DNA from: a virus
Direction: 5' to 3' (one strand)
DNA length: 64,000 nucleotides
IMG/VR virus record: IMGVR_UViG_3300043425_000861
Each line of letters opens with the position of its first letter. Positions within the stretch are counted from its first letter, which is position 1. A program made the position numbers and the translations under genes. Shown in pieces: positions 46,056-63,521 of this stretch. The notes below the pieces were generated by a model. The model searched no databases. It had not been told where the DNA came from and saw only the letters and a list, made by a program, of their open reading frames with translations.

Positions 46056-46107
46056 AATATATAAATACTATTCATAAACAAAGAACCCTCCGTTAGGAGG
46101 GTTTGTA

Positions 46108-46224
46108 TTAGGCTCTTTTCTTGGTTTTACGAGTATGTCCTTTTCGGATACAACTCTTAACCACCGGACCGTTCTTTGTCTTAACGATTCTTGAGAAGTT
46201 GTGGGGTCTTACTGTTGTTGCCAT
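46108..46224 (-). CDS. 38-aa basic peptide
   Basis: MATTVRPH...RKGHTRKTKKRA followed by a terminator hairpin. Confidence 0.5.
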   Translation of the reverse strand: MATTVRPHNFSRIVKTKNGPVVKSCIRKGHTRKTKKRA

Positions 46225-46404
46225 ATTATAAGTTTTATACAAAGATAGTATATTTTCCAAAAAATTCCAGAAATTTTTTTTTCGGTTTTTAGAAATATAT
46301 TTCCATTTAAAGGTTTTTACCCCCCGAATGTATAGGGATATTATAGGAATTAGAAATATAGTTCCAATTTCCCCGATTTTTTCCGGAAAAATTTCAGTCG
46401 GAGC

Positions 46405-46520
46405 ATTGTCCCCCCTATTAGACAAGGTAAAAACCCTATATATAAGGGGGGATACGGGAGGGGGGAGGGGGTACATATAGGTATAGGGGGGTATACCCCA
46501 CCCCATAACCGGTGGACTTG
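46405..46520. other. G-tract region at the divergent transcription switch (possible genome end, pac site or origin)
   Basis: GGGGGG-ATAC-GGG-A-GGGGGG-A-GGGGG...GGGGGG-TATA-CCCC; genes run minus to the left and plus to the right. Confidence 0.45.
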
Positions 46521-46640
46521 TTTTCACCTACCTGTTCGGGTGTTCTTAACATTCATTAACAAAAAAATATACCGAAGTATTAGGATTTCTCATATAACCT
46601 TTATACATTTACATATCGTTTCACACTAACCCCTACTAAA

Positions 46641-47012
46641 ATGAAAGTAACAGAAAAAGAGTATCAAGAGTCAATGAAGTTGGTTGAGAAGTACAACCGA
46701 CTAATCTCAAAACACGAGGACATCATCAAGACCTACTACAAGAATCTTGTTAATACCAATTCCTCCGTTCCCGTTCCTCCCACCTTTGATAGTATTCACA
46801 TTTGGGATTTGAACTTGAATGTGTACACATTTAATATCCTTAAAGATAAGACCAATATCCGTACTCTTGGGGATATATGTAGAACTCAACCTTACGAGTT
46901 GTTCAAGATAAGAGGTCTTGGTAAGGATAGACTATATAAGTTGAATGACTTAATCGAAAAGGACTATAAGTTTAGGTGGTTTCAAAGTCACGGACTTGGG
47001 AGGGGTTATTAA
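46641..47012 (+). CDS. protein with RNA polymerase alpha-CTD-like domain
   Basis: IWDLNLNVYTFNILK..NIRTLGDI.....ELFKIRGLGK matches the alpha-CTD pattern. Confidence 0.7.
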   Translation: MKVTEKEYQESMKLVEKYNRLISKHEDIIKTYYKNLVNTNSSVPVPPTFDSIHIWDLNLNVYTFNILKDKTNIRTLGDICRTQPYELFKIRGLGKDRLYKLNDLIEKDYKFRWFQSHGLGRGY

Positions 47013-47413
47013 CCCCTCTTTTTTTTGTCCAATAATTTGTATCGTAGTAAAAACAACAAACGATAATATGTCCAACAGCTTTTGATGATACAAACAAAAA
47101 ATAAAAAAACCCAAAACCAAATTTTTTCCTGAGTTTTTTTTAATGTCTACCGGTTATTTGATGAGGTCGAAAGCTGTTTGACATTTTCCGTGGACGGTAT
47201 CCGAAAAAATGTGGATAACTATGTGGAAAACTTTTGACCAAAATATTAGGATATATGGATTATATTATTTTACTTTGTATTGTTGTTGAGGGGGTTGGTA
47301 ATAAGGGTTAAAAATTTTAACATTTCTTAACAAAGTCTTAACACAAAATATTAGGTTTATTCATTTTTATTTCCGTACTTTGTCCTATCGTTAAACAATT
47401 AAACAATAACACT

Positions 47414-48022
47414 ATGTCAAATCAAGTAAAAGAAATCGTATCAGTACCTAACAATGAGTGGGTATCAGTAGTAGGGGAAGTTTTATCCAATGTAAATAAC
47501 CCTACATTCAGTTCCTTTGTATCAAAGGTAAAAGTTAAAATGAATCAGTACCTTGACTATTGGATAATCAATGAGGAAGGTAAGAAGAAGAAAAATCCTA
47601 ACCCTACCAAAAATCCTTACTACGAAGAAGGTATCATTAACCACTCTCGTAAGGTACAAATTAACACAGGTTTTGACTATGTTAAGAGTGTGAACGGAAG
47701 ATTGGAGAGAGAAGGTAAAGAGGGTAACTTTGAAGGTCAAGACAATTGGTTTGAGGTTATCAGTAAGGGTTTGGTAACTGACAAGAGTACTCGTACCAAG
47801 TTGTACTTTCGTTATCAGTACCTTAAAACAAGTACCCAAGACCAAGAGTTCTTATTTCAAGGTAACCAAATTGAAAAGAGATTATTTGAGAGTTTTATGA
47901 CTGAAAAGTCAAACTACGAAAATCAAGGTTTGGATAACCCACTACAATTCCAAGTGTGTGATTTGAACAATATCTTAAAGATATCAATCGGGGGTGTAAC
48001 CTACGAAAGAGAGTTAGTGTAG
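47414..48022 (+). CDS. hypothetical early protein (paralog of 56133-56648)
   Basis: Shared KVxMN...NxYYE..I.H...DY...F-x-GN-x-IEK-x-LF. Confidence 0.8.
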   Translation: MSNQVKEIVSVPNNEWVSVVGEVLSNVNNPTFSSFVSKVKVKMNQYLDYWIINEEGKKKKNPNPTKNPYYEEGIINHSRKVQINTGFDYVKSVNGRLEREGKEGNFEGQDNWFEVISKGLVTDKSTRTKLYFRYQYLKTSTQDQEFLFQGNQIEKRLFESFMTEKSNYENQGLDNPLQFQVCDLNNILKISIGGVTYERELV

Positions 48023-48342
48023 TGTGAGTAGTTTAACAACTGAAAAGGGGTGTAGAAATACACTCCTTTTTTTTTGTCTTACATATTCCGAGTCGGAGGA
48101 AGACGGGTCGGAAATGTCTTACAGCTTCTCGGTCAAAAAAAAGTTTAATAAAAATTTGTTGTGTGAAAAATTCTTCTTGTGTCAGGAAGTTAAAGATGTC
48201 TTACAGCTTTCGGGTATTGTCTTACATAACCGGTGGACATCTTTGAAGAGTCACCGTCACGGGTTGTTAAAAAAAATTTAACACAAAATATTTGGATATA
48301 TGATTTATATTGTTTTATTTTGTCTTACTAAACATTAAGGAT

Positions 48343-48636
48343 ATGACAAAAGAATACATTCAAGAACAATTACAATTCAACCCAAAGTGGATTGAAAGAG
48401 GTTTGGTGGTTTTGTATAACAGACAAACCCAAGATGAGAAAGAAAATGTAATGACCAAGTATGAGAACGGAGTAGGTTTCAATGGTAGTGATGTGAAGTA
48501 TCTAACCTATTGTAGTAAGTGGGTATTGAGTGGTAGACATTTGAGTGGTGTCCACTTAAACAAGTGTGGTAAGATGTTGAAGAAGTATTGGAAACAAATA
48601 CTACAAGAGATAGAGAAAAAGAAAAGGGAGAATTAA
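48343..48636 (+). CDS. hypothetical early protein
   Basis: LYNRQTQDE..T..NGVGF..D...KYWKQ. Confidence 0.8.
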   Translation: MTKEYIQEQLQFNPKWIERGLVVLYNRQTQDEKENVMTKYENGVGFNGSDVKYLTYCSKWVLSGRHLSGVHLNKCGKMLKKYWKQILQEIEKKKREN

Positions 48637-48853
48637 CTCCCTTTTTTTATGTCCATACATCATCATTGTAATCTAATTACAATCAACTGAAATGTCAAAC
48701 AGCTTTCAGTGTGGTATTTGTCTTACAGATAACCGGTGGACATTTCTTCACCATCAGAGTTCCCTCAAAACTTTAACATTTCTTAACAAAGATAAATTTG
48801 GTGGTTTCATATAAAGATATTACTTTTACATCATAATCAAAAACACATACACT

Positions 48854-49102
48854 ATGTCAAAGTTTCAAAAAGTTATCGGTCAAATCGGTTTTACACTTAT
48901 CGGTCTATTCGGTTTGTGTGTAGTCCTTACCATTCTTTCTTCCGACTATCGTGGAGAAGAAGAATACAATCGTTATGTTGTAATTCAAGAATTTTTATTA
49001 AATTGGTACACGGTTACAATGTGTATTGTCGGTATGTTGTTCGTATCATTCACTTGGTTTAAGTTTGAACCAAAGAGAAGGAATAGACCAACGACTTTCT
49101 AA
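48854..49102 (+). CDS. 2-TM membrane protein
   Basis: Two hydrophobic segments; own promoter. Confidence 0.75.
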   Translation: MSKFQKVIGQIGFTLIGLFGLCVVLTILSSDYRGEEEYNRYVVIQEFLLNWYTVTMCIVGMLFVSFTWFKFEPKRRNRPTTF

Positions 49103-49305
49103 AAGAAAAATTTACAAGGTTGTAATGTCAAGGTGATGTCTAACAGCTTCACCTTGATTTTTTCGTTGTCCAAATAACCGGTGGACATTTTCGGTGGTAC
49201 AGATGATGATAAAAACTTTAACACTTCTTAACAAAAATAAATTTGGTATTCTCGTATAAGGGTTATATATTTGTATATCGTTAAACAATTAAATACATTT
49301 ATCAA

Positions 49306-49512
49306 ATGGAAAATCAAGAAAACAAACTAAAAGTAAAGTTGAGTCCGTTCAAGTCCGACCTTACATTTAATGAGTGGGTGGAGAAATACAAAGTTGGTAG
49401 TGGTTATGTGGAACCGACAAAGTATTTTCAAGGTAATCCTTCGTGTGGTGTCAAACCCATAAACATTGAGGAAAACAAAAACCCCATACTCAAATTCTTC
49501 TTTAATGTATAA
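49306..49512 (+). CDS. hypothetical early protein
   Basis: Own promoter and terminator. Confidence 0.7.
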   Translation: MENQENKLKVKLSPFKSDLTFNEWVEKYKVGSGYVEPTKYFQGNPSCGVKPINIEENKNPILKFFFNV

Positions 49513-49742
49513 AATCAAAACCCTACTTCGGTAGGGTTTTTTTATGTCTAATAATTTGTATCGTAGTAAAAACAACAAACGATAAAATGTCTTCCGGTTA
49601 TTCAGGAGCTGTTTGACATTTTCCGTGGACGAAGGAAATCCAAATTTTATTTGTTAAAAAAATAATTAAAAATTTAACACAAAATAATAGGATATATGGA
49701 TTATATTGTTTTACTTTGTTCTCAAATCAAATCACACTACAA

Positions 49743-49958
49743 ATGAAAGTAATCCAATCACGAATCACTGAACAACCGAAATCGTTGTTCGACCCAATCC
49801 CAAGAGTTTATGTTACATTAGAAAATGGAGTGGAAGAATTCCTATTCGACTACTACCCCGATGAAATCAGTTTCACACCGAGTGAGTTCATTGGTTTGAC
49901 AATCGAAGAATGTAGACACCTCAAATTCAAAAAGGATAGACATTATCTGACAAGTTAA
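49743..49958 (+). CDS. hypothetical early protein
   Basis: LFDYYPDEISF..EFIGLT. Confidence 0.75.
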   Translation: MKVIQSRITEQPKSLFDPIPRVYVTLENGVEEFLFDYYPDEISFTPSEFIGLTIEECRHLKFKKDRHYLTS

Positions 49959-50198
49959 AATCAGACCCTACTTCGGTAGGGTTTTTTTATGATGAAGAAT
50001 CAGTGTTCCGAACACCGATGGTAGGATGTTCAACAGCTTCCCATAGACCAAATAACCGGTGGACATTTCTTCACCACCCGTGTCCCCAAAAAAATTTAAC
50101 ATCCTTTAACACTTTTTTAACTTCTCAAATTTGGAATATCCGAATATTACTTTTATATTTGTATTGTTAATTAATCACACACTAAAAACACTTAACAA

Positions 50199-50405
50199 AT
50201 GAAAAATTTATTTCAAACCCTATTCGGTACAACCTTTCAAAATGTAGTGGACATTGTAAGTCAAATGGACACTATTGAAAAATGTCTATTCCTTTTTTGG
50301 AGTATTTGTGTAGTAATGTTTTATTCTACATTCCTTTACATTATCTATATGGTAGGTAAGGAGTTGGTATCTAAATTAGTATTCACCCTTAAAACTTCAA
50401 AGTAA
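50199..50405 (+). CDS. small membrane protein
   Basis: Hydrophobic central helix. Confidence 0.7.
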   Translation: MKNLFQTLFGTTFQNVVDIVSQMDTIEKCLFLFWSICVVMFYSTFLYIIYMVGKELVSKLVFTLKTSK

Positions 50406-50737
50406 TGTCAAATCACATTTCAACAAAATCAAGATGGGTTTCAACCGATGGTTGGAGAGGTTATTCAGAACCGATTAATGGTATCGGTGGTTGTAACCAC
50501 ACAGGTAGTTGGTCTGATAGTCCGTGTCCAACACACGTTGTGAAGTCAGAGTTAGACGGGTTTAAAAAAATCCTACGTCAAAACAAAATTAAGTTTAAAC
50601 AATTCGTTACTCAAAGTTCCAATGTCTTTTGTCAACACGTTTACATTTTAGTACACCCTTCTGATAGGGAACGTGGATTGGAATTGAGTAAGGAATACCA
50701 ACACCGAGAGGGAATCAGATTATTCTATTCGTGTTAA
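50405..50737 (+). CDS. hypothetical early protein
   Basis: WVSTDGWRGY...SNVFC; TAATG coupling to the upstream gene. Confidence 0.75.
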   Translation: MSNHISTKSRWVSTDGWRGYSEPINGIGGCNHTGSWSDSPCPTHVVKSELDGFKKILRQNKIKFKQFVTQSSNVFCQHVYILVHPSDRERGLELSKEYQHREGIRLFYSC

Positions 50738-51054
50738 TAGTTCCTCCATATACCCCCAACCCTCATCGAGAAACCGGTGGGGGTTTTTTATTGTCTTACA
50801 TATTCCGAGTCGGTGCATCCTGAATCTGTGGAAATGTCTTACAGCTTTTAAGTGTTGTCTTACAAATAACCGGTGGACATTTTACACCTTCCAGGGTGCC
50901 CGGGTCTTAAAAAATTTTAACACTTTTTAACAAAATAAATTTGGTAGTCTCGTATAAGGGTATTACCTTTACACTATGAAAAACGAAATGAAAAACGTAT
51001 TGATTAAATGGTCACTTATTTTAGTATTATTAACAATTAAAACCTTATTAGAAA

Positions 51055-51387
51055 ATGGTAATTAAATTAACACTCCTTAATGGAAACTCGTTTTTGGTAA
51101 ACACAAACCAAGTTCAGACAATCTTCCCTAAATTTTACAAAGGGGATTATGTAACTCGTATTCAGTTCAATCAAGAGACAATGATTCAAGTTCGTGAATC
51201 GGTTGAAGAAATTTACAATCAGATTTGGAACGAAGAAAAAATTGACACACCTTTTGAATTGATAACTCGTGATGATGAAAGTTTTGATTTTAAACCAAGA
51301 CCTCAAAGTCAAAGACCTCGATACAATAATCAACAAGAGTATCGACCTCGTTATGATAGAAACTATAACACCCAAAACCATTATTAA
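51055..51387 (+). CDS. hypothetical protein (FlbD-like N-terminus)
   Basis: IKLT.LNG..F.VN...I...T.I......VRESVEEI. Confidence 0.6.
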   Translation: MVIKLTLLNGNSFLVNTNQVQTIFPKFYKGDYVTRIQFNQETMIQVRESVEEIYNQIWNEEKIDTPFELITRDDESFDFKPRPQSQRPRYNNQQEYRPRYDRNYNTQNHY

Positions 51388-51388
51388 G

Positions 51389-51532
51389 ATGAAAGAGATA
51401 ATAGATACATTCAGAGAACATTACAGAGAAGACAGAAAAGATTTTTGGGAAGTGATAATTGGTTCGATTCTCATTACATCATTCATAGTCTTTATGTTTT
51501 GGTTTGTCGGAACGTTTTGTTACGATATGTGA
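51389..51532 (+). CDS. small membrane protein
   Basis: 47 aa with a C-terminal TM. Confidence 0.6.
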   Translation: MKEIIDTFREHYREDRKDFWEVIIGSILITSFIVFMFWFVGTFCYDM

Positions 51533-51794
51533 TTAGTAGTAGTGTAGTTTAACGATGAGAAATACCCTCGATGAAAGTCGGGGGTTTTCTTTTTGGTCTC
51601 AGTCGAGTCTACAACAGGTACTGGTGAAATGTCTTACAGCTTTCGTATAACCGGTGGACATTTTCGTAGTACAGAACCTTCGGGTACTGAGTAAAAAAAA
51701 ATTAACAGATTTTAACATTCTTTTAACCACGAATATTAGGATATATGGATTATATTGTTTTACTTTGTTACATCATTAAACCATATACTACAAT

Positions 51795-52115
51795 ATGAAA
51801 AATTTAAAAGACGAAAAACAACAATTAGTAAAGAACATTAGTGAGACTAATGACTTTAAAAAGTTAGAATTCACAATCATCAGTTTGATTATGGGTTGGA
51901 CAATCGACAACACTCATCAAGACGAGTACAAGGAGTTGATTAAACTTTCAGTTGGTCGATTGAGAACTTTATCAATCATCAACGGAATTGAACATCCTCT
52001 TATGGATATGGATGTGGACACGGAAGAAGATAGAATTAAAAATTCGTTCCGTTTGTCTTTGTTACATAATGTAATAGAGAAGAAAGAACCAACATTCGAC
52101 TTCAATTTGAATTAG
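51795..52115 (+). CDS. hypothetical early protein
   Basis: Own promoter and terminator. Confidence 0.75.
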   Translation: MKNLKDEKQQLVKNISETNDFKKLEFTIISLIMGWTIDNTHQDEYKELIKLSVGRLRTLSIINGIEHPLMDMDVDTEEDRIKNSFRLSLLHNVIEKKEPTFDFNLN

Positions 52116-52369
52116 GTGTTGTAAATGAATTGTGAAACCCTCGGACTTAAATGTTCGGGGGTTTTTTATTTCCATACCTCATCATTGTAATCTTTTTACA
52201 ATCAACTGAAATGTCTTCCGGTTATTTGAGAGCTGTTTGACATTTTCCGTGGACGAAACCTTCAGAAAAAAATTAACACTTCTTAACATTCTTTTAACTA
52301 CAAAAATTTGGTATTCTCGTATAAAGATTATACATTTGTAACATCATTAACAATTAAACATACTACGAA

Positions 52370-52732
52370 ATGAAAAAAGGAATTTTAATCGATGTTCACA
52401 ATCGTGAAATCAAAGAAGTAGAAATTGAAAAAGGTATTCAATCTATCTACGACCAAATTAAGTGTGACACATTTGATTGTGTTCAAATCCACGAAGAAAA
52501 TGATGTCTATGTAGATGACAACGGACTAATGAACTTAAATGAGAAATCTATGTTCTTTAGTTACAAGGGTTATCCACAACCTTTAAGTGGGAATGGTTTG
52601 ATACTTGGTATCGACCACGAAACGGGTGAAAGTATTGATACCACTTTGACAATCGAAGAAGTTAAAAAGAATGTAACTTTCTTAACTCTATTCGAAATCC
52701 AACTGATGTCAAGATTCGGTGTTTTAAATTAG
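52370..52732 (+). CDS. DUF3846-like protein
   Basis: ILID...I...I-x-C..FD-x-V...YVDDNGL...QPLSGNGLILG. Confidence 0.7.
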   Translation: MKKGILIDVHNREIKEVEIEKGIQSIYDQIKCDTFDCVQIHEENDVYVDDNGLMNLNEKSMFFSYKGYPQPLSGNGLILGIDHETGESIDTTLTIEEVKKNVTFLTLFEIQLMSRFGVLN

Positions 52733-52969
52733 TGTTATAGTGTGGGTTAGTAAGACCACTCCGAAAGGGGTGGTTTTTTTTTGACCACAATCCATCTTGA
52801 GTCAGGACCAGGAGAAATGTTTAACAGCTTTCGAATAACCGGTGGACATTTTCCACTCTTCCGGACGACATCTGATTTTAACATATCTTAACACTTCGTT
52901 AACAAAATAAATTTGGTGGTTTCAAATAAAGGTATTACCTTTATAGTGTTAAAAAAAAACAATACTACT

Positions 52970-53356
52970 ATGGGACAATTCAGTTGGATTACACAAGACA
53001 CGAAAAGGTCAATCTCCTCGATTACTCCTTTTCAAGTAACTATGACAGACCACAAAGGAAACAAGTGGACTGAAAATGATTACGAGGGTTATGGTGAATT
53101 TGGTGGTAAGGACTTCTTTTCACTACTCTCCGAAATGAATGGTGGTAATGGTGACCGAAATCACGGGATTGATTTACGATTTAGTGGTCAACCTTATCTA
53201 TCACCGAACTTGAACGAAGACCCGACAATCGAATGGAAAGATGAAGTTCCCGATGATTGTCCAAGACAAGGTTGGGTAGAGTACGACGAAGATGGTGACG
53301 AACTCCCCGACGAAGATGAAGATGAATGGGAAGACGACGAGGAAGAAGAAGATTAA
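52970..53356 (+). CDS. hypothetical protein with acidic tail
   Basis: MGQFSW...YEGYGEFGGKDFF...DCP-x-QG. Confidence 0.8.
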   Translation: MGQFSWITQDTKRSISSITPFQVTMTDHKGNKWTENDYEGYGEFGGKDFFSLLSEMNGGNGDRNHGIDLRFSGQPYLSPNLNEDPTIEWKDEVPDDCPRQGWVEYDEDGDELPDEDEDEWEDDEEEED

Positions 53357-53590
53357 AAAAGAGACCACTCCGAAAGGGGTGGTTTTTTTTTGTGACCAAG
53401 AAGAAGATGTAACCTTACGGTTCGGGAGAAATGTCTACCGGTTATTTGGAGCTGTTGGACATTTTCGTAGTACAGAACCTTCGGGTACTGAGTAAAATCA
53501 TTAACATCTCTTAACAAAGTTTTAACTACTGATATTTGGTATTCTCATATATAGGTATTACCTTTATACCCTAATCAAACTACTACTATT

Positions 53591-53881
53591 ATGGAAAACA
53601 ATGTAAATGTATTTGAGTTCGGAGTATCGTTAGGTCAAATCGAGTTCGTTCAAAATTGGGACTTAGACCTCAACGATAATTGTTCCGAGGAGAATTGTGT
53701 TAGTGTTTTAGAAAAACTAATGGATACCAATCAATTTGAAATGGAAGAAAAAACATTTGGTATGGTTATTCGAAATGAAGAAAAGGATAACACCTACTTC
53801 GTTCTTACTCGACCTTATGTTGATGGTTGGAGTTGGGACTTTGACCACGAAGACACTATCGAAGTCGAAATCACAATCTAA
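53591..53881 (+). CDS. hypothetical acidic early protein
   Basis: Own promoter and terminator. Confidence 0.75.
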   Translation: MENNVNVFEFGVSLGQIEFVQNWDLDLNDNCSEENCVSVLEKLMDTNQFEMEEKTFGMVIRNEEKDNTYFVLTRPYVDGWSWDFDHEDTIEVEITI

Positions 53882-53981
53882 ATAGAAACCCCTCACACGA
53901 GGGGTTTTTTTATGTCAAGAATTTATCCAACGGTCGTCAGAGTGGAATGTTCAACAGCTATGTTAAAAAAAAGTTTTAAAT

Positions 53982-54027
53982 TTTAACACAAAATATTTGG
54001 ATATATGGATTATATTGTTTTACTTTG
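53982..54027 (+). promoter_or_regulatory. representative early promoter (Bacteroidota sigma-type) with upstream TTAACA
   Basis: TTTGG-atatatggattatattgtt-TTACTTTG; similar copies precede almost every cassette from 46.6 to 62.8 kb. Confidence 0.8.
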
Positions 54028-54050
54028 TGGTATCAAAAATTAGAAAAGAT

Positions 54051-54551
54051 ATGACCACGATTGACAAATTTATTGACGACCAACGAAATTTCGTACTACG
54101 AGTGTTCAAAGGTAAAAGTGAATTATCACCTATGTTGTGTATGTTGACTGAAAAGGAAGGTAAGACCTATACTTCTATGTGTCCTATACCTACTGAACTG
54201 ATGACTGATGAGGGTAAGGATATTATTAGGTACGGAATTGTTGAGAAAGTAAAAGAGTCAATAAAGAAAGATGGTCACAAACTATTGTGTGTGAATTGGA
54301 ATAGTGAAGGGTGGATGTACCAAAGTTCAAAAGAACAATTAAATGAAGTTGATGGTTACTACCGAAAGTTACCACGAACGGAAGTATTGTTAATGTCCTT
54401 TGATACGGAAGAGGGTAGTAAAATCATTACCTACGAAATCGTTAGGAAAATGTCAGTTGGGGTTGATGGACTAAATGAAGAGGTGGAAGTTGAACTTATG
54501 AAACTTGGTGAAAATTTTACAACAAAGGGTAGGTTTACAAATATGTTTTAA
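54051..54551 (+). CDS. hypothetical early protein
   Basis: SEGWM...R-x-EVL...GRF. Confidence 0.8.
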   Translation: MTTIDKFIDDQRNFVLRVFKGKSELSPMLCMLTEKEGKTYTSMCPIPTELMTDEGKDIIRYGIVEKVKESIKKDGHKLLCVNWNSEGWMYQSSKEQLNEVDGYYRKLPRTEVLLMSFDTEEGSKIITYEIVRKMSVGVDGLNEEVEVELMKLGENFTTKGRFTNMF

Positions 54552-54808
54552 TGGTTGACTCGTGTTTTTTGTTATAAAGAGGTAGGACTTTGTCTTACCT
54601 TTTTTTTGTCCACAATCCATCTTGGTTCCCGTCCTGGTAAAATGTTCAACGGCGAAAGCTGTAAGACATCCTCAGCTGTACCCTGATATGACAAGGTTGT
54701 CAAAATAATTTAACACTCTTTAACATTTTTTTAACTACAAATATTTGGATATATCAATTATATTGTTTTACTTTACACTATTAAATCACACACTTAAAAA
54801 AATTAATT

Positions 54809-55093
54809 ATGGAAAGTAGAATTGTAGTAACAAGACGTGGTGACTTCGGTCACGATTGGAACTTGATTGTTGAAACACACAATGGTATCAAGAACTTTTA
54901 TTTGGGACAAGATGTAAAATTTTGTAGTCGAGTATTAGGAATGTCACCAAGAGAAATTGTAAACGAAATCGGTACGGGTGACTTCACCAAAGAAGAAAAT
55001 CTAAAACTATTAGGTAACTTCATTAGTGAACATTTAGGATTGGTTGATGAACAAGTACAAGAATTGGAAACGTGGGAATTGTGTTGTCAGTAA
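54809..55093 (+). CDS. hypothetical early protein
   Basis: FYLGQDVKFCSRVLG. Confidence 0.75.
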   Translation: MESRIVVTRRGDFGHDWNLIVETHNGIKNFYLGQDVKFCSRVLGMSPREIVNEIGTGDFTKEENLKLLGNFISEHLGLVDEQVQELETWELCCQ

Positions 55094-55282
55094 AATCTAA
55101 ACGAAAAGACCTCAACGAAAGTTGGGGTTTTTTTATTTCATTAATAATCAATCTTTTACGAATTCAAACTTCAACTGTTACAATGTCGAACAGCTATGTT
55201 AAAAAAATAATTAAAATTTTAACATAAAATATTTGGTTATATAAATTATATTGTTTTATTTTGTATTCTAAAATTAACCACT

Positions 55283-55480
55283 ATGTTACTACCAAAGTAT
55301 GAAGAAGTCCCAATGAAATGTATCAAAGTAAGTTTTAGTGAAGACAAGTTCTATCACATATTCTTACAAGATGAAAATGATGTCAGTAGTTGTATGTCCA
55401 TAACCGATAATATGGGTTTACCACTTGACTTTAACGAATGGGATAATGTTCTACTATTTCTTAATCTTAAAACACACTAA
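55283..55480 (+). CDS. hypothetical early protein
   Basis: Follows a promoter. Confidence 0.65.
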   Translation: MLLPKYEEVPMKCIKVSFSEDKFYHIFLQDENDVSSCMSITDNMGLPLDFNEWDNVLLFLNLKTH

Positions 55481-55482
55481 AA

Positions 55483-55776
55483 ATGAAACATTTTGAAGAT
55501 GTAAAAAAGGAATTAACCAAAGGTGGAATTGATTGGGTATTAGGTACGGAAACGGGTTGGAGTGAGAACTCCTTAATCTTTGATGGGGGTGATTGTAAAA
55601 TTCTACTCTATGTCGAGGAAGATGAAAAAGGTAATTTGTCCTTAACTTATCACGACCTATTTGAAGAGGGTGAATACTCACCAATCTTTGACAACACGAA
55701 TGAAGAGACCACAACAAGTTATCGTGGTACTGATACTTCGGTTAAAGGTATGTTAAAAAACTTGGACTTAATTTAA
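55483..55776 (+). CDS. hypothetical acidic protein
   Basis: 97-aa ORF followed by a terminator. Confidence 0.7.
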   Translation: MKHFEDVKKELTKGGIDWVLGTETGWSENSLIFDGGDCKILLYVEEDEKGNLSLTYHDLFEEGEYSPIFDNTNEETTTSYRGTDTSVKGMLKNLDLI

Positions 55777-56132
55777 GTTTGTAAATCTTAAACACGACCA
55801 CTCCGAAAGGGGTGGTTTTTTTTTTGTCCAAGAAGATGTAAGGTTACAGGGGTGGGAGAAATGTTTAACAGCTTTCACACCAACAAAATAACCGGTGAAC
55901 ATTTTTTCACCCAACAGGTGTCAAAAAATTTTAACACTTCTTAACAAAGTTTTAACACAAAATATTAGGTTTATTCATTTTTATTTACGTACTTTGTATT
56001 GTTGAAATGAGGGAGATATATCAAAAAAAAATTAACATTCTTTAACATTCTTTTAACACAAAAAATTTGGTATTCTCATATAAAGATTATACATTTGTAT
56101 TGTTAAATTATTAAACACTAAAAGTTACTACT

Positions 56133-56648
56133 ATGGTAAATCAAACATTGTTAGTTGACTACGATACTATGGTATCAGTATGTCGTGGAATTACGAAAGG
56201 TCAATTCGTAAACCTATTCACTTCAACGAAAGTGAATATGAATAAGGGTGGTCGTCAGGGGTTGAATACCTACTACGAGAAAGTGATTAAACACGTAAAA
56301 GGGAATGTCCGTCCTTTGTGTGACTACGAGTTACGTATGGACAACGAGAATGAGAAACGTGGTTTACCCGAACACGAGTTGGGACAAAACAAAGTTGGTA
56401 GTCACGTGGACGAGGTTGGTTGTGTTACTCGTAACGAAAAGTTAAATCGTTACTACTTTATGTACGAGTTCTTCGACAACGTACGAGTAAAGGTTGACTA
56501 CGAGTTCGAGGGTAATTCTATCGAGAAACAACTTTTCGACCAATGGGTTATCAAGTCGACAAAGAACAACGTGAATGTTCGTCAAGTGAATATCGACAAC
56601 ATCAACGAAATCACTATCGACAAAACGAAGTACATTAGAGTAAGGTAG
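56133..56648 (+). CDS. hypothetical early protein (paralog of 47414-48022)
   Basis: See 47414; both genes have tandem double promoters. Confidence 0.8.
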   Translation: MVNQTLLVDYDTMVSVCRGITKGQFVNLFTSTKVNMNKGGRQGLNTYYEKVIKHVKGNVRPLCDYELRMDNENEKRGLPEHELGQNKVGSHVDEVGCVTRNEKLNRYYFMYEFFDNVRVKVDYEFEGNSIEKQLFDQWVIKSTKNNVNVRQVNIDNINEITIDKTKYIRVR

Positions 56649-56875
56649 GGTTAAAGTTCATAGGTGAAAGGGGGTGTAGTAATACACCCCTTTTTTTTTG
56701 ACCACAATCCATCTTGGTTCGGGACGTAATCCGAAATGTCTACCGGTTATTTGAAAGCTGTAAGACATTCCAACTCAGATGGGACGTCCTATTTTCTTAA
56801 CACTTCTATAACAAAATAAATTTGGTAGTTAAATAAAAAGGTATTACTTTTACATCATAATCAAAAACACTATTA

Positions 56876-57211
56876 ATGGAAACACTAATTATCACATCAT
56901 CATCAAATCAAGGACTTAATGATAAGATTAAGTCATACACCGAACAAGGTTATAGAGTGGTAGGTACACACCAAGTTGTAGAGACACACCACCAAAATCG
57001 TTTTCGTGGTACTCAACACGTGGATACAATTATCGAACGTGAGTATAGTATTACTATGATAAAACACCAACCTACTGATGAGGACGTACACCCATCATTA
57101 AAAGTTGGGATATACTACCGATACCGAGGGGGAGACGTCAAGATATATGATGAGGACGAAATGAGAAACGAGTTCGAGGAAAAATTATCTAACCTAATAA
57201 ACCCATTGTAA
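56876..57211 (+). CDS. hypothetical early protein
   Basis: C-terminal YDEDEMRNEFEEKL resembles the C-terminus of 58621-58974. Confidence 0.75.
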   Translation: METLIITSSSNQGLNDKIKSYTEQGYRVVGTHQVVETHHQNRFRGTQHVDTIIEREYSITMIKHQPTDEDVHPSLKVGIYYRYRGGDVKIYDEDEMRNEFEEKLSNLINPL

Positions 57212-57212
57212 T

Positions 57213-57422
57213 ATGAGTGAAGTTTATGTAATTGTCTATAAAGACACCACGTTTAATCACGAAGACACCATTGAGGGAGTGATAGAAAAAGAAAATCAAT
57301 TTTCCGAGTGGTTAATTCGACACAATAACGATAGACGTGAATTAGATGAGGACAACGACTACTTTGTGGAAGAAACCGAAGAGGACTTTCAGTTGGTACG
57401 AGTTCCATATTTCAAATCTTGA
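57213..57422 (+). CDS. hypothetical acidic protein
   Basis: 69-aa ORF. Confidence 0.7.
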   Translation: MSEVYVIVYKDTTFNHEDTIEGVIEKENQFSEWLIRHNNDRRELDEDNDYFVEETEEDFQLVRVPYFKS

Positions 57423-57551
57423 TGAGGAGATAAAATGTTAATGGAATGTCTAACAGCTTCCATTAACACTTTTTAACAATCTTTTAACGAGAAATACTTG
57501 TTTATATCGTTTATATTGTTTTACTTTGTACTTCATTAAAATCTACACAAA

Positions 57552-57803
57552 ATGAACAAAGAAAAAGTAACCCAAGTTGTTAAAGGAATGATTATCGACC
57601 GAATAACCGAAATGGTGGAAGATATGTCGAACCACGACTTTGTCGAGAATGTAATGGATAGACTCGAAAACGAAGGAGTTGTAATGGACTTTGAAAACGA
57701 AGAAGTCCAAGAAGAAATTACCGAACTTATCGGTACCCAAGTTTTACCACTACTTCACAAGATGTCGGAGTATATACTCGGTAAGGAAATTCCTATCAAG
57801 TAA
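57552..57803 (+). CDS. hypothetical acidic protein
   Basis: Own promoter and terminator. Confidence 0.7.
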   Translation: MNKEKVTQVVKGMIIDRITEMVEDMSNHDFVENVMDRLENEGVVMDFENEEVQEEITELIGTQVLPLLHKMSEYILGKEIPIK

Positions 57804-58052
57804 TTCTCAAACCGAGTTAAAAACCTCACAAGAAATTGTGGGGTTTTTTTATGTCCAAGAAATTACAACCTTGTAAATTTTCAAAAATCTTGGAATGTTC
57901 AACAGCTTTCAAATAACCGGTGAACATTTTTTACCCCAACAGGTACGAAAATTATTAACAGATTTTAACAAAACTTTTTATCAAAGTATTAGGAAATATC
58001 ATTTTTATTTATCACCTTTGTATTGTCTACTAACCAATAGACATCTACAACT

Positions 58053-58376
58053 ATGGACACATTGTTCAAATCACAAATCGAAAATACTCTTACTACCAAT
58101 GTGGAGTTTGAGTTCTCTTTGGACTTCCAAGGACAAGTTGAGTACATTGAGTCGGAGGACACCGACCAATTTTTGGAATTGGAACGAGTAGTTCTATTCC
58201 TTGTTGAAAAAGATTTAATCCCTATCAACGAGAGAACCGAGGGTGTTGTAACCATCAAAGATGGTGTTGTCGAAATCGACTACAAGACTTGTTCACAACT
58301 CGGTGAGGATTGGGGTGATGATGTTTGGGACGAACACATTACCAAAGTTTCAGTACAAGATTTGGTAGGGGAATAA
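58053..58376 (+). CDS. highly acidic protein (DNA-mimic candidate)
   Basis: Very Asp/Glu-rich 107 aa; mimic role is speculation. Confidence 0.7.
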   Translation: MDTLFKSQIENTLTTNVEFEFSLDFQGQVEYIESEDTDQFLELERVVLFLVEKDLIPINERTEGVVTIKDGVVEIDYKTCSQLGEDWGDDVWDEHITKVSVQDLVGE

Positions 58377-58409
58377 TCCCCTACTTTTTTTCATTATAAA
58401 ACTACAACT

Positions 58410-58616
58410 ATGTCAAAGTATCAATGTTTATCTCCCGATGGTTTCACGATTGAATTCGACAAGTGGACGTACCCCTCAAAAAAACAAATGATGGAGTCCT
58501 TCAACAAATGGAAAAAGAGGTACGAACAACAAGGGTATTATAGTTCCAACAACTACGGACGAATTCCATTAGACCAATTAGAAAATTATTGTACATTCAA
58601 AACCATTAAATCTTAA
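58410..58616 (+). CDS. hypothetical early protein
   Basis: LSPDGFTI...W..RY..QGYYSS..GRIPL. Confidence 0.75.
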   Translation: MSKYQCLSPDGFTIEFDKWTYPSKKQMMESFNKWKKRYEQQGYYSSNNYGRIPLDQLENYCTFKTIKS

Positions 58617-58620
58617 AACT

Positions 58621-58974
58621 ATGTTAAAAGTTAAAGACCACACGAGGTATCGTCATTTCGATTACGAAAGTGAACCAAGTACTACGTACCAACTTGGTGA
58701 TGTGTTACTCAAAAAATACGATGATGAATTAAGTTCGGAAATTGGAGTAGTAATACAAACATTCTCCGATGGTGATTTTAGAACTGATATGTGGGGTATG
58801 AGTTCATATAGTGAAGTATTACGAGCTAAACTATCTGATGTTAAAGAATATAGACCTGACCTTCTATCAGATTTAATTATTAACATAGATGTTTACTTCA
58901 CTACCGATGATAATGGTGAGATAACATTTGATGTTGAGGAAATGGAAAATGAGTTAATCCACTTGACTATGTAA
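58621..58974 (+). CDS. hypothetical protein
   Basis: EIGVVIQ...FRTDMWG; carries the first Ala codon after the GpC-free zone. Confidence 0.75.
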   Translation: MLKVKDHTRYRHFDYESEPSTTYQLGDVLLKKYDDELSSEIGVVIQTFSDGDFRTDMWGMSSYSEVLRAKLSDVKEYRPDLLSDLIINIDVYFTTDDNGEITFDVEEMENELIHLTM

Positions 58975-59352
58975 AACATTAATGATATATTTTTGTTATA
59001 GTTTAGTGTTTAGTTTGTTTGGTAGTAAGTTTAAAGGTGGATAGAAATGTCCACCTTTTTTCATTTATAACATCATCTTCACCTGGAATCCCAGGTCAGA
59101 TGTTCAACAGCTTTGTGGCCGTAAGACATTTGTCTGGTTTAGCCCGAGTCCCATTCTTCAGAATAACATATTGATTAGCAACTCCTATTTCATTTAGTGT
59201 GAAACCATTTATAGCCGTAAGACATTCAATGCAGCGCGCGCTGGTCCTGATTCCAGTGTTAAAAAAATAAATTAAATTTTAACAAAAAAACTTATCAAAA
59301 TATTTGGTTTATAAATTCTCGTGTAGTAATTTTGAATTCTAAATTAAATCGT

Positions 59353-60219
59353 ATGACAGAACAAACTATCACCACAGGTAACGAGATTACCGACATTCTC
59401 AATCAGACAGGTCTGAATTGGAATGTAAGAACAGAAGAATTACAAACCACATCAGGAATTATTATCCCTGATAAGATTGGTTTAATCCGTGATGACAACA
59501 ACACTTGTCTTGGCGTTCACTCGGGTTCGTATGTACCTTATCAGAATCAAGAGTTATTGGAATTGTTATTCCGTATCTCTCAACAAACAGGATTGAAACT
59601 TCATACAGGGGGTTCATTCAAAGGTGGTGAGAAGGTATGGTTTCAATTAAAGTCAGAAGACTTGAAGTTGTCCAACGACAGGATTGAAGGTTACATTAGT
59701 GGGTTCAACTCATTTGATGGAAGAACATCATTAGCGTTTGGTAACTCGAATGTTACAGTATCTTGTCAAAATACTTTTTGGAAAGGTTACAGAGATGTTG
59801 AAACCAAATTGAGACACTCATCAGCGATGAAACCAAAGATTGAAGAAATTTTGAGAAAGATTGATGTTCTATTACAAGAAGAACAACAAACCTTCGACAA
59901 CATTCAACGTCTTGGTAATGTTAGAATGACACAACAAGTTAAAGACTTGGTTATTCGTAGATTGTTCGACATTGAAAAGGAAGAGAGACTTGATAGTGAT
60001 GACTTATCTACTAACAAGAAAAACAAACTCTCTCGTTTCTACATTGACTTGAATGGTGAGTTACAACAAAAGGGTGATAACCTTTGGGGTTTATTTAGTG
60101 GTGTAACAAAATATACCACACACTCTATGAAGAAAGGTGATAACACGGAAGGTAAAATCTTCGGACAAGTCGGTTACAAAGAGAGACAGATTTGGGACAA
60201 CCTCGTAGAATTGGTGTAA
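59353..60219 (+). CDS. DUF932/DUF945-family protein
   Basis: GLNWNV, Y-x-P-x-QN, GSFKGGEKVW, NSFDG, VSCQNT, RH, NLWGLF-x-GVT-x-Y. Confidence 0.85.
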   Translation: MTEQTITTGNEITDILNQTGLNWNVRTEELQTTSGIIIPDKIGLIRDDNNTCLGVHSGSYVPYQNQELLELLFRISQQTGLKLHTGGSFKGGEKVWFQLKSEDLKLSNDRIEGYISGFNSFDGRTSLAFGNSNVTVSCQNTFWKGYRDVETKLRHSSAMKPKIEEILRKIDVLLQEEQQTFDNIQRLGNVRMTQQVKDLVIRRLFDIEKEERLDSDDLSTNKKNKLSRFYIDLNGELQQKGDNLWGLFSGVTKYTTHSMKKGDNTEGKIFGQVGYKERQIWDNLVELV

Positions 60220-60514
60220 GACATAATAGGTTGATGTGATTTGAAACCCTCGGACTTTTGGTTCGGGGGTTTTTTGTTTCTGTGCACTGTACCTGCACAG
60301 CACTGGAGTCAATGTTCAACGGCTTGTGGCTGTAAGACATTCACCTGCACCAGCGCTGCACTGGCGTGCTGCGTTTATCGTCGCCGTAAGACATTGGACC
60401 TGGGATTTAGCGCTGTTCTGTTCTTAACATTCTTTAACATTCTTTTAACAAAAAAAATTTGGTAGTTAAATAAAAACATATTACTTTTACATCATCATCA
60501 AAAACAACAAAGAA

Positions 60515-60733
60515 ATGATTAAATCAATCGAAGAAAAAGAAACCAAGTTAGAAATTGACTTGACAGGTCCTGACGGAAACGCGTTTGTACTATTAGGGTA
60601 CGCGAGTAGATTCTCTAAACAATTAGGTTTAGATGGGAAAACCATTCAATCAGAAATGATGAAAGGAGACTACGAACATCTCGTAGATACATTCGACAAA
60701 TATTTTGGGGAATACGTTACGTTATATCGTTAA
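60515..60733 (+). CDS. hypothetical phage protein
   Basis: IDLTGPDGNAFVLLG...M-x-GDYEHL. Confidence 0.8.
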   Translation: MIKSIEEKETKLEIDLTGPDGNAFVLLGYASRFSKQLGLDGKTIQSEMMKGDYEHLVDTFDKYFGEYVTLYR

Positions 60734-60809
60734 CAAAATTTTAACTAAAATTATTTGGCGGTTAAATAAAAAGTTATTACTTTTACATCATCATCAAAAC
60801 AACAAAGAA

Positions 60810-61061
60810 ATGTCAGAGTTAAAAACAAAAACTGATGTCCTATCACATTGGACTAAAAAATCGAAAGAGGTTTTACAGGGTAAGACCATAGTAGAAGTTC
60901 GTTATCTTAATGACGAAGAAATGGAAATGATGGGTTGGTATAAACGACCTGTGTGTTTCTTCCTTAATGATGGTACAAGTTGTATCTTGTCCTGTGATGA
61001 TGAAGGGAATGATGGTGGTGTATTATTTTATGGTAGTGATGGAGTTCTACCAACATTATAA
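60810..61061 (+). CDS. hypothetical protein
   Basis: L-x-GKTI..VRY..E....GW...S-x-DDEGNDGG. Confidence 0.75.
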   Translation: MSELKTKTDVLSHWTKKSKEVLQGKTIVEVRYLNDEEMEMMGWYKRPVCFFLNDGTSCILSCDDEGNDGGVLFYGSDGVLPTL

Positions 61062-61080
61062 ACCTTTAAATCAAAAAGAG

Positions 61081-61314
61081 ATGAGTTACCTAACATTAAG
61101 AGATTGGAGAGAAAACCACGTCAAAGTTATTTTTAAACTTGACGGAAGTAAGGTAGAGGTTAAATCAACTGATAGTGATATAACCTACTTTAAAAGTACC
61201 GATAGAAAAATTGTTCAAGAGTTTATCGACAATTCGACAAAACAACTGACAACAATCTACGAACTTAATTTCGAGAACATTCAACAAGATTTTCTAAACG
61301 TAATAAATAATTAA
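61081..61314 (+). CDS. hypothetical protein
   Basis: 77-aa ORF in an operon. Confidence 0.65.
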   Translation: MSYLTLRDWRENHVKVIFKLDGSKVEVKSTDSDITYFKSTDRKIVQEFIDNSTKQLTTIYELNFENIQQDFLNVINN

Positions 61315-61318
61315 AAAA

Positions 61319-61762
61319 ATGGGTTACACACACTATTGGAATTATACCAAACCATCAAAAGATTTTGATGATGAGTACATCAACGTACTATTAGACATCA
61401 ACCTCGGATTAAAAAATCTCGACAAGAGTATCGTATTACGAGGTGGAGACGGAACAGGTTTACCTGAATTCACAAGAGAAAGAATTTGTTTCAACGGAGA
61501 CGGACAACAAGGTTTAAACCACGAAACATTTTATTTTGATAAAGACCCTACGGACTTTACCTTTTGTAAGACAAACAATAAACCCTATGATTTTTTTGTA
61601 GGAGTTTGTTTACTCTCACTGGCGAATAGAATAACAGGGTTTGAGTTCAGTTCAGACGGAGACAATCGAGAGTGGGAACCAATTATTTTGTTCTATCAAA
61701 AGTTTATTGGTGAGATTAAACCAAGTATTTTAGAAAAATTATTAAGATTAGAAGAATTTTAA
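61319..61762 (+). CDS. hypothetical phage protein
   Basis: MGYTHYW...FNG...HETF...FCKT..KPYD...SSDG. Confidence 0.8.
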   Translation: MGYTHYWNYTKPSKDFDDEYINVLLDINLGLKNLDKSIVLRGGDGTGLPEFTRERICFNGDGQQGLNHETFYFDKDPTDFTFCKTNNKPYDFFVGVCLLSLANRITGFEFSSDGDNREWEPIILFYQKFIGEIKPSILEKLLRLEEF

Positions 61763-61864
61763 CAAAAAATATTTGGAAGTTAAATAAAATTGTATAACTT
61801 TGTAATCGTATTCATTATTCTATAACTAACTCGGGGACGGGACGAAATCCGAACAAAAATTATC

Positions 61865-62611
61865 GTGAATAAAATTCAAACAGGTAAAAAAGTGGGTGAA
61901 ATCTTTGAGACCAAAGATTACTCAATCTTCAAATTTAGAGAAGATAATCGTATCGTAAATCAAAACCACGTTAGAAAACTCTCTCAACGTATGAAAGAGA
62001 ATGGTTGGTTATCAACATCAGTAGTTACTATCAATGGTAGTGGTGAAGTTATTGACGGACAACACAGGATTAAGGGAGCGATTATCGCGGGTGTCCCTGT
62101 CCGTTACAAATGTGTGAGAGGGGCGGGTAGTGATGAAATGACATCAATGAACACACTTCAACGAAATTGGTCTCCATTTGACCACTTAAATAAATTCGTG
62201 AAGAAAGGAAATCCTAACTACATAACTTTCCAAAAGTTTACGGAAGAATTTCCAATGTTCAAATATACTGAATGTGCGATGTTGTTACAAAATAGTGTAA
62301 CATCAATCAAGAGAGATAATTTTGATAGTGGTAATTATGTTGTGAGAAACGAGAAGAAAGGTCGATTATGGGGACAACACTTGTTAGAGTTGAAACCATA
62401 CTTTGAGAAGTACTACAACAAATCAATCTTTGTGAGAGGTTTCATCAAAATCATTTCTAACAAGAAAGAGTTTGTGTTTGAAGAATTTTTACACAAAGTA
62501 AAGTTGAGACCTAATATGTTAGTTCCTTGTGGTACAACGGAACAATATATTGAAATGATTGAGAACATTTACAACTATAAGAGAAGTAATAAAGTTAATT
62601 TAAGATTTTAG
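61865..62611 (+). CDS. ParB/Srx-like N-terminal domain protein
   Basis: NR-x-V...HV-x-KL...M...GW...VIDGQHR. Confidence 0.75.
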   Translation: MNKIQTGKKVGEIFETKDYSIFKFREDNRIVNQNHVRKLSQRMKENGWLSTSVVTINGSGEVIDGQHRIKGAIIAGVPVRYKCVRGAGSDEMTSMNTLQRNWSPFDHLNKFVKKGNPNYITFQKFTEEFPMFKYTECAMLLQNSVTSIKRDNFDSGNYVVRNEKKGRLWGQHLLELKPYFEKYYNKSIFVRGFIKIISNKKEFVFEEFLHKVKLRPNMLVPCGTTEQYIEMIENIYNYKRSNKVNLRF

Positions 62612-62853
62612 TTGTAGATGATGAGTGAGAAAAGGGGGTGTAGAAATACACTCCTTTTTTTTTGTCCAAGAAGATGTAACCTTACAGGGTGGGAGGAATG
62701 TTCAACGGCTTTCAAATAACCGGTAGACATTTCTTTCCGACGCGCTGAGGAAATCTTTTAACAAAATTTTTAGAAAATAATTGGTTCAGAATTTGGAAAT
62801 ATCAATGATATAGATGTATATTTGTGAATAATTAATCATCTCAATCAAATCAA

Positions 62854-63117
62854 ATGAAAAAGAAAACACAACACACACTCTTAAAGGGTGAAGGTATCCA
62901 CCAACACACATTGTATGGGGATTTCAAAATCGGTTCTGAAACCGAAGTAGATTTTATGGAAGTGGAAGTATCCGAAGAAAGTTTACTTAAACACGAGAAA
63001 CCTAATGGTTCTTTTGGTGAACACAAGACACTAAAAATTGAACAGGGTAAGTGGGTGATGGGTAAACAAGTAGAGTACAATCCTTTTAATCAAACCATTT
63101 CAAGAGTTTGGGACTAA
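62854..63117 (+). CDS. hypothetical protein
   Basis: GEG-x-H-x-H...L-x-HE...EH....G-x-W...Q-x-EYNP. Confidence 0.75.
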   Translation: MKKKTQHTLLKGEGIHQHTLYGDFKIGSETEVDFMEVEVSEESLLKHEKPNGSFGEHKTLKIEQGKWVMGKQVEYNPFNQTISRVWD

Positions 63118-63521
63118 TGGCTAATCCACTAATTCATTCAAAATCCAGTGTAAAAAGGTGGGGTGGAAAAGTAGAAGACTACATATCCATTCACGAGTTA
63201 ATTGATAGTCCGAAGGCGACTATGAACAATAACTCATCAAGATTATTAACACATAATACTTGGTTTGCGTATCATATATGTCCGAAGATTTTTGGATATA
63301 ACATTACGAACTCTGATGGTAAGAGTGTTGATGTAGTTGATATTGCGATGTTACATATCGCAGAGGACTTCCGTATGAAGTTCGTTCCGACACCACAGGA
63401 TTACTTACAACATTTACAAGTCCAACCCTGGATGAATAATGGTGTGAAGGTTTTGGATAGTGTGGACGCCCAAAACATTGTTAAACAACTAAACGAAAAA
63501 TTACATTATGAAATCAGTTAA
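63117..63521 (+). CDS. DUF6915-like protein
   Basis: P-x-x-HS-x-SS..WGG..DY..IH...DS-x-K...H...HI-x-ED. Confidence 0.7.
   Translation: MANPLIHSKSSVKRWGGKVEDYISIHELIDSPKATMNNNSSRLLTHNTWFAYHICPKIFGYNITNSDGKSVDVVDIAMLHIAEDFRMKFVPTPQDYLQHLQVQPWMNNGVKVLDSVDAQNIVKQLNEKLHYEIS

Follow-up and report, generated by a model that had tools for sequence, protein, structure and literature searches.

This study concerns a short, two-armed DNA element that recurs between the early genes of an uncultured giant freshwater Bacteroidota phage. It lies in a stretch of 64,000 nucleotides from the IMG/VR virus record IMGVR_UViG_3300043425_000861, to which we refer in the following as the window. The early region of the window is an array of about 35 small genes, all on the + strand, and the gaps between them follow a common order: stop codon, intrinsic terminator, a flank of about 35 bp, the element, a second flank of about 27 or 37 bp, TTAAC repeats, promoter and start codon. 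Terminator-like sites are clearly enriched here (31 versus 8.5 expected), and the promoters, which we recognized by eye and by alignment, are conserved and of the Bacteroidota -33/-7 type; a scan for sigma-70 promoters is uninformative here (70 sites versus 61 expected). Directly 5' of most early promoters, between positions 46545 and 62790, stand one to three TTAAC(A) repeats with a spacing of 11 bp. The promoters themselves come in two classes, a ATTWGGATATATGG type and an ATTTGGT...TAYYTTTR type. At two places (47245-47413 and 55965-56132) we observe a tandem layout, in which the promoter that has an element precedes a short G-rich leader, behind which come further TTAAC repeats and a second promoter lacking an element.

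A first-pass annotation, made from the sequence of the window, had described arms of the consensus AATGTYnn(A/C)C(A/G)G(C/T)T at about 22 intergenic loci, placed between a terminator and the next promoter. The consensus is real: it has 32 matches, all between 47142 and 62731, where 0.22 are expected by chance. We catalogued arms in 22 terminator-to-promoter gaps, with exactly one element per gap, and the placement holds for every element. A weight-matrix scan, which adds arms starting with GATGT or TATGT to the consensus matches, bears out the confinement of the element to this region, as it finds no arm of the AGCT type at 12 bits or more left of 46.5 kb; the single match of the CCGG type there, at 8574, is chance-like. 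The canonical unit is 35 bp long and consists of an AGCT arm (A-type, 14 bp), a spacer of 7 bp and a CCGG arm (B-type, 14 bp) facing it, with the conserved part of the B arm extending into the spacer (ACCGGTTATTTG). Across all elements, the spacer ranges from 6 to 27 bp; spacers of 14-27 bp often contain a GC-less copy of the arm core. Such GC-less arm remnants of the TGTCTTACA type are a class of their own that was missing from the earlier description, with 14 copies versus 0.8 expected. Those at 48075, 48218, 48719, 50792 and 50856 lie directly behind terminator T-runs and within long spacers, and the spacers of related phages hold a similar word, GGTATTACA. The 28 A arms and 15 B arms, as well as close variants, display conserved blocks such as ATGT, AC-GC and ACCGGTTAT, separated by single positions that vary freely. 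The flanks, on the other hand, belong to at least five sequence families without mutual relation.

Of the 15 hetero-arm elements in the window, 10 are forward and 5 reversed; in addition, there are 3 homo-arm elements, and about 8 arms stand alone. Canonical 35-bp elements are found in forward orientation at 51628-51662, 52816-52850, 57894-57928 and 62697-62731, the last with an A arm of the ACGGCT type, and in reversed orientation at 52210-52244 and 56735-56769. Further reversed copies lie at 47142-47185 (spacer 16), 49586-49620 (spacer 7) and 53430-53463; the latter is 34 bp long and shares its right flank with the forward copy at 51628. The remaining forward copies are those at 48195-48241 (GATGT arms, spacer 19), 48691-48744 (spacer 26, with a GC-less arm remnant inside), 49135-49189 (spacer 27, with the A arm forming the loop of the preceding terminator hairpin), 50025-50067 (spacer 15), 50833-50881 (spacer 21) and 55860-55903 (spacer 16). 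The full element at 48195 and the forward GATGT-arm elements at 49135 and 50025 extend the earlier list, as do the three homo-arm (A-A) elements at 54641-54670, 59099-59130 (ACGGC-type arms) and 60311-60341, to which no strand is assigned. The core zone contains five lone arms, all of A-type and all on the + strand: 47067-47080 (TATGT variant), 48113-48126, 53946-53959, 55182-55195 and 57445-57458. Those at 53946 and 55182 each stand 35 bp upstream of an ATTTGG/ATTAGG word with a -33 box, and that at 57445 occupies the loop of a 9-bp hairpin beside TTAAC repeats. Two extra lone A arms on the - strand, 59213-59226 and 60382-60395, share their gaps with the homo-arm elements at 59099 and 60311, respectively, and a partial B-type arm on the - strand (46507-46520, 17.1 bits in the weight matrix) marks the left edge of the early array. 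A mechanically called open reading frame of 85 amino acids with a GTG start (48024-48281, + strand) spans both the lone arm at 48113 and the element at 48195; rather than a gene, this is probably a long gap.

The spacing between the element and the promoter is far from arbitrary. The arm nearer to the promoter ends, on its outer side, either 26-28 bp from the first TTAAC repeat, as in 10 cases, or 35-39 bp from it, as in 5, irrespective of whether the copy is forward or reversed and in the context of at least 10 different flank sequences. The two groups are one helical turn apart (Rayleigh R = 0.81 at 10.5 bp). The distance between element and terminator varies from 33 to 47 bp without any phase. 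It follows that the part being positioned is the outer half of the arms, which both arms share, and that its position is set relative to the promoter. The element had been described as separate from the promoter, but the end that faces the promoter keeps phase with both the TTAAC repeats and the promoter itself, and we therefore find it best read as the upstream part of an early-promoter control region.

The arms also stand out by their base composition, as most of the array lies in a zone from which the dinucleotide GC (GpC) has been cleared. Between positions 46405 and 58825, GpC occurs 24 times, where 360 occurrences are expected from base composition, and alanine is absent from the first 24 proteins of the array. 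As proposed before, almost all surviving GpCs reside in the element: 21 of the 24 are part of an arm, and the remaining three neighbor an element within its gap. This retention, which recurs independently in a related lineage (L026, see below), indicates that the element is under selection. The asymmetry of the arms in the window may itself date from this clearing, if the same pressure turned the GC of one arm into GT. The terminator hairpins of the array (46998-62650) are G+C-rich, but contain no GpC, with stems built from runs such as GGGG/CCCC and CTC/GAG. At the right edge of the cleared zone (59090-60420 and 62735-62750), GpC fills the gaps in the form of GCGC-rich palindromes, but not the genes, and the gap flanks of two related lineages (L018 and L023) are similarly GC-rich. 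Another word, GATC, is absent from the entire window, but present in L018 (24 in 19 kb), L020 and L023; in L018, GATC and CCTGG/CCAGG are seen on both sides of the element. Upstream of the array, the window encodes a DNA/RNA non-specific endonuclease (26203-26802, - strand; PF01223, E = 1.5e-23) and a T5orf172-domain protein (28107-28670, - strand), which are possible candidates for a nuclease tied to the GpC clearing.

To follow the element among close variants, we collected contigs that share identical early proteins with the window from 14 metagenome samples (JGI, NCBI; 94-100% DNA identity). The five reversed copies are genuine, and their flank families are the same as those beside forward copies. 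The idea that the element actively inverts is not borne out: in the consensus contigs of all 14 samples, each orthologous locus has the same orientation as in the window. For instance, the copy at 47142 is reversed in L001-L006, that at 52210 is reversed in 9 of 9 contigs covering the locus, and that at 52816 is forward in 9 of 9. What does vary are the two free positions per arm, the Y/R position and the spacer, which at the 51628 locus is 7 bp in the window and 14 bp in L010 and L011. The element is present in every orthologous gap of these variants, and we found no empty sites. Identical flank families, however, carry it in either orientation at different loci, and flips must therefore have occurred during evolution, perhaps via short-patch conversion between copies paired by their shared outer arms. 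The variants differ by whole cassettes, with breakpoints chiefly in promoter or flank repeats (L003, L005 and L010 compared with the window), and they reuse flank, TTAAC and promoter modules as a mosaic. In L003, the first gene is replaced by others, whereas L005 has lost about 70 bp between two direct arm copies, from the 47067 arm to just before the next arm (alignment A1). L010 (403-779, corresponding to 50909-50981 of the window) has gained an extra gene of 123 amino acids between two copies of a 73-bp promoter stretch, much like the gains known from the promoter and stem-loop (PeSL) linkers discussed below.

More distant relatives were reached with two anchor proteins, the product of an array-adjacent gene and a conserved early protein of 202 amino acids. 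They led to five further lineages, all of which have a two-armed element in the same gap, with arms that are specific to each lineage. The arm cores are GTCYAACTGC in L026, TGTTTGGC in L018/L020, TAGTTTGGC in L024, TAGTGGAGC in L025 and TTGTCTGG in L023, and in five of the six lineages there is a GC step at the inner end of the arm. The most instructive comparison is that with L026, which has flank modules, TTAAC repeats and promoters in common with the window, but whose 27 arms are all of the other type. As the linkers are the same and the arms are not, the arms must have changed in concert, as would be expected of a site that co-evolves with its binder. L026 also repeats the 27/37-bp steps and has a GpC-depleted early region of its own, in which 27 of the 31 remaining GpCs (309 expected in 10.3 kb) lie in arms; both promoter classes of the window are found there, too. 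In L018, the genes contain no GpC at all, and 24 of the 45 GpCs in its gaps are located in arms; its elements stand 60-62 or 71-72 bp from the -33 box, and A-tracts replace the TTAAC repeats. In L023, the element occurs without a cleared zone and without GpC in its arms, and the repeat and the GpC clearing are therefore separable traits.

The composite pattern of the element is absent from 185,579 reference genomes (GTDB species representatives), which speaks against a site of a host regulon. Among GenBank phages, megablast and tblastn found no relative, scans of IMG/VR with the pattern and with proteins returned no close relative or match, and a pattern scan of metagenome contigs gave no match, although contigs of the phage exist in JGI and NCBI data. 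Likewise, we found no paper on the repeat or on GpC-free early regions in phages. Searches for structure were negative as well. When folded together with 30-bp flanks, ten copies are no more stable than shuffled sequences (z from +0.4 to -1.8), and a cruciform or hairpin is ruled out by the DNA folding z-scores. We also dismissed a palindrome of about 90 bp across the whole gap, as this tendency is weak (mean z 0.75) and partly due to pairing between T-runs and A-runs. Rfam has no match at gathering score in 46000-64000, and no target-site duplications are seen at the ends of the element.

Taken together, these observations favor a role at the level of DNA, as the first-pass annotation had suspected, and the confinement of the element to the early array agrees with it. 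We consider it probable, at roughly 60%, that the element is a lineage-specific binding site in double-stranded DNA, operator- or enhancer-like, for a sequence-specific and most likely phage-encoded protein, and that this site is coupled to the early promoters. This reading builds on the conserved blocks with free positions between them, the lack of structure, the helical phasing and the independence of orientation, but also on the concerted, lineage-specific change, the GpCs kept against the clearing and the absence from reference genomes. Almost every early promoter has one such element upstream. The protein would bind the two arms, each of 14-16 bp, as a dimer or as two subunits that tolerate different spacings and, from a fixed face of the helix, would communicate with the occupant of the TTAAC repeats and the promoter, that is, RNA polymerase, perhaps through a contact with the C-terminal domain of its alpha subunit (alpha-CTD). 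The outcome would be a joint control of all early cassettes, for which we lean towards early shut-off rather than activation.

Several points weigh against this interpretation. A spacer that varies between 6 and 27 bp is unusual for a rigid dimer, and so is the position of the element for a simple repressor, given that it lies far upstream of the core promoter, at an estimated 85-115 bp before the start of transcription. The copies have a common ancestry, and the phasing statistics therefore overstate their independence; moreover, the two groups of distances in L023 are separated by about 6-7 bp, which does not correspond to a helical turn. The two second promoters of the tandem layouts (near 47345 and 56065) have TTAAC repeats, but no element, and promoters are therefore not strictly dependent on it. 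Finally, no binding protein was identified, and searches of about 30 early proteins against Pfam and NCBIfam revealed no classical DNA-binding domain, except for an alpha-CTD-like one.

This domain is found in the product of the first gene of the array (46641-47012, + strand), a protein of 123 amino acids that matches the RNA polymerase alpha-CTD family PF03118 with 29.1 bits (cut-off 23.8) and has a homolog in L026 (10182-10481). By its domain, this protein could bind the A/T-rich TTAAC region or compete with the alpha-CTD of the host; such a domain would suit that region more than it would the arms. No support was gained for the gene at 61865, whose ParB-like nature had been offered as a possible link to a binding or loading site. 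Its product matches PHROG 12305 (E = 3e-25), but sequence searches of Pfam, NCBIfam and the PDB gave nothing significant: the best ParB chain in the PDB appears at E = 0.12, and neither the N-terminal domain of ParB nor a helix-turn-helix motif was detected. The most conserved early protein, the 202-residue anchor mentioned above, is encoded at 47414-48022 (+ strand), with a paralog at 56133-56648 (+ strand). It has 159 homologs, most of those listed being 50-98% identical, and some of them on contigs of 160-340 kb. Its AlphaFold2 model is of high confidence (pLDDT 90.5), but has no Foldseek match in the PDB and only a weak Sm/WYL-like similarity (Z of about 4-5.5). As it lacks a helix-turn-helix, we do not propose it as the binder. 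Setting the number of its paralogs against arm symmetry yields three data points (n = 3), too few to build on.

Other explanations can account for parts of these data. The arms could have no function and merely be a conserved piece of PeSL-like terminator/promoter linkers, kept by homologous shuffling of cassettes. The whole-cassette differences among the variants, such as the extra gene of L010 between duplicated promoter stretches and the replaced first gene of L003, the mosaic reuse of flank, TTAAC and promoter modules and the loss between direct arm copies in L005 would all fit. Nevertheless, we regard this as unlikely, because the breakpoints lie mostly in promoter and flank repeats rather than in arms, conservation is far higher in the arms than in the flanks, the arms retain GpC within the cleared zone, those of L026 have changed in concert while the linkers have not, and the helical phasing would be left unexplained. 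Alternatively, the strong early promoters, which are of the host type and with which the element is phased, might recruit a protein of the host, for instance a transcription factor, a nucleoid protein or, as bacterial interspersed mosaic elements (BIMEs) do, gyrase. A host factor has the advantage of being in place when the DNA enters, and the lineages may differ in their hosts, as the lack of GATC in the window and its frequency in L018 might suggest; yet no GTDB species representative contains the composite pattern, and the window and L026 differ in their arms despite nearly the same promoters and TTAAC repeats, which makes a host protein an improbable binder. It also appears doubtful that the retained GC steps are programmed targets, at which the GC-reading activity that cleared the zone, or a nuclease of the phage, sets one nick or base modification per cassette. 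That almost all surviving GpCs are in arms, in two lineages with different arm words, and that genes for an Endonuclease_NS-family nuclease and a T5orf172-domain protein are present in the window is compatible with this idea, whereas the element of L023 manages without GpC in its arms and without a cleared zone, the CCGG arm has no GpC either, and no evidence links either nuclease to the site.

Site-specific recombination, one of the roles initially considered, is suggested by the 14-7-14 layout with unequal arms, which resembles dif and lox, and by the occurrence of both orientations beside identical flanks. It is nonetheless very unlikely that the element serves site-specific recombination or inversion in the manner of lox, dif or attC. 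The length of its spacer is not fixed even at a single locus, where it may be 7 or 14 bp, most mosaic breakpoints fall into promoter or flank repeats, its orientation is constant in the consensus contigs of the 14 samples, genes between oppositely oriented copies all keep one direction, and no recombinase was found among the window proteins scanned with Pfam. We hold it to be similarly far-fetched that the element is a tiny mobile repeat, akin to repetitive extragenic palindromes (REPs) with their associated transposases (RAYTs) or to miniature inverted-repeat transposable elements, or a signal in structured RNA or single-stranded DNA. While it is an imperfect palindrome, extragenic and present in both orientations, and while the A arms at 49135 and 57445 lie in hairpin loops, it folds no more stably than shuffled sequences, Rfam is silent on the region, and the sense strand would bear the opposite sequence in 5 of the 15 copies. 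Mobility is furthermore difficult to reconcile with gaps that each hold a single element at a defined distance from the promoter, with no target-site duplications or empty sites among close variants, and with no transposase among the window proteins scanned. A last proposal, that the element is a protected decoy for enzymes cutting at AGCT or CCGG, gains no support, as these sites are not avoided elsewhere in the genome.

Beyond the binding-site interpretation, a more far-reaching idea deserves mention, although it is rather unlikely to be correct. The arms might be lineage-specific address labels for a protein that arrives with the DNA or just after it, and their conserved GC step might be what the GC-reading activity responsible for clearing the surrounding 12 kb is meant to act on. 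Each early cassette would then have one sanctioned site that is bound and shielded, nicked or modified, and related phages would have diversified this label in a lytic giant phage much as immunity or incompatibility specificities diversify.

The transcription programme of uncultured giant freshwater Bacteroidota phages is so far undescribed. About 25 promoter-phased copies that switch in concert point to a single master regulator of host-takeover and anti-defense genes, and the copies themselves could serve as bait for finding it. As the main refuge of GpC in two lineages, the arms also offer a handle on what cleared GpC and alanine codons. Lineage pairs with the same linkers, but different arms, in turn, amount to a natural specificity-swap experiment.

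Several known systems invite comparison. In T4-type phages, PeSLs are linkers of a promoter and a stem-loop between small early genes (Arbiol 2010, PMC2839356; Comeau 2014, PMC4122927). As in the window, the small early genes form arrays, and a conserved linker equips each gene with a terminator and a strong host-type promoter of its own; cassettes are gained and lost between close relatives through recombination in these linkers. Here, by contrast, the linker has an additional two-armed third part, which is phased with the promoter, may face either way and differs between lineages through concerted change. The Bacillus phage SPbeta provides another parallel with its SPBRE repeats, which are dispersed in its genome and bound by MrpR, as seen in genome-wide binding profiling; SPbeta is a temperate phage, whose lysogeny is maintained by MrpR, a protein with a recombinase-like fold (PMC10516654). 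Both systems have conserved repeats dispersed over a large phage genome, which in SPbeta are read by one phage-encoded regulator, but the phage studied here shows no sign of lysogeny, its binder is only predicted and its repeats have unequal arms.

Integron attC sites and the BIME/REP sequences of E. coli work as folded single strands or as hairpin-forming repeats. They resemble the element as imperfect palindromes with conserved outer parts and a variable center, located between cassettes or behind terminators; the element, however, is without a folding signal, and no integrase or RAYT gene was seen. The OB sites of KorB in plasmid RK2, which belong to the ParB-parS kind of system, are a dozen or more palindromes upstream of promoters, at distances that vary. 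Different incompatibility groups have different sites, just as different lineages have different arms, but the ParB-like assignment of the gene at 61865 rests on a PHROG match. The small phage protein p4 of phi29 acts by contacting the alpha-CTD of RNA polymerase. Its sites are pseudo-inverted repeats upstream of promoters for the host RNA polymerase, at which the p4 dimer switches early promoters off (PMC3100819). With their unequal, A/T-rich outer arms, about 15 bp or more apart, upstream of such promoters, the p4 sites are the nearest working analog of the element, even though phi29 has four of them at a single control region, whereas here there are about 25, one per cassette and with a variable spacer, and no homolog of p4 was found here. 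The trait that unites operator arrays, a conserved site repeated at a set distance from promoters, is present here in both orientations and again in L026, and we place the element with the operator-like repeats in phage early cassettes, a known kind.

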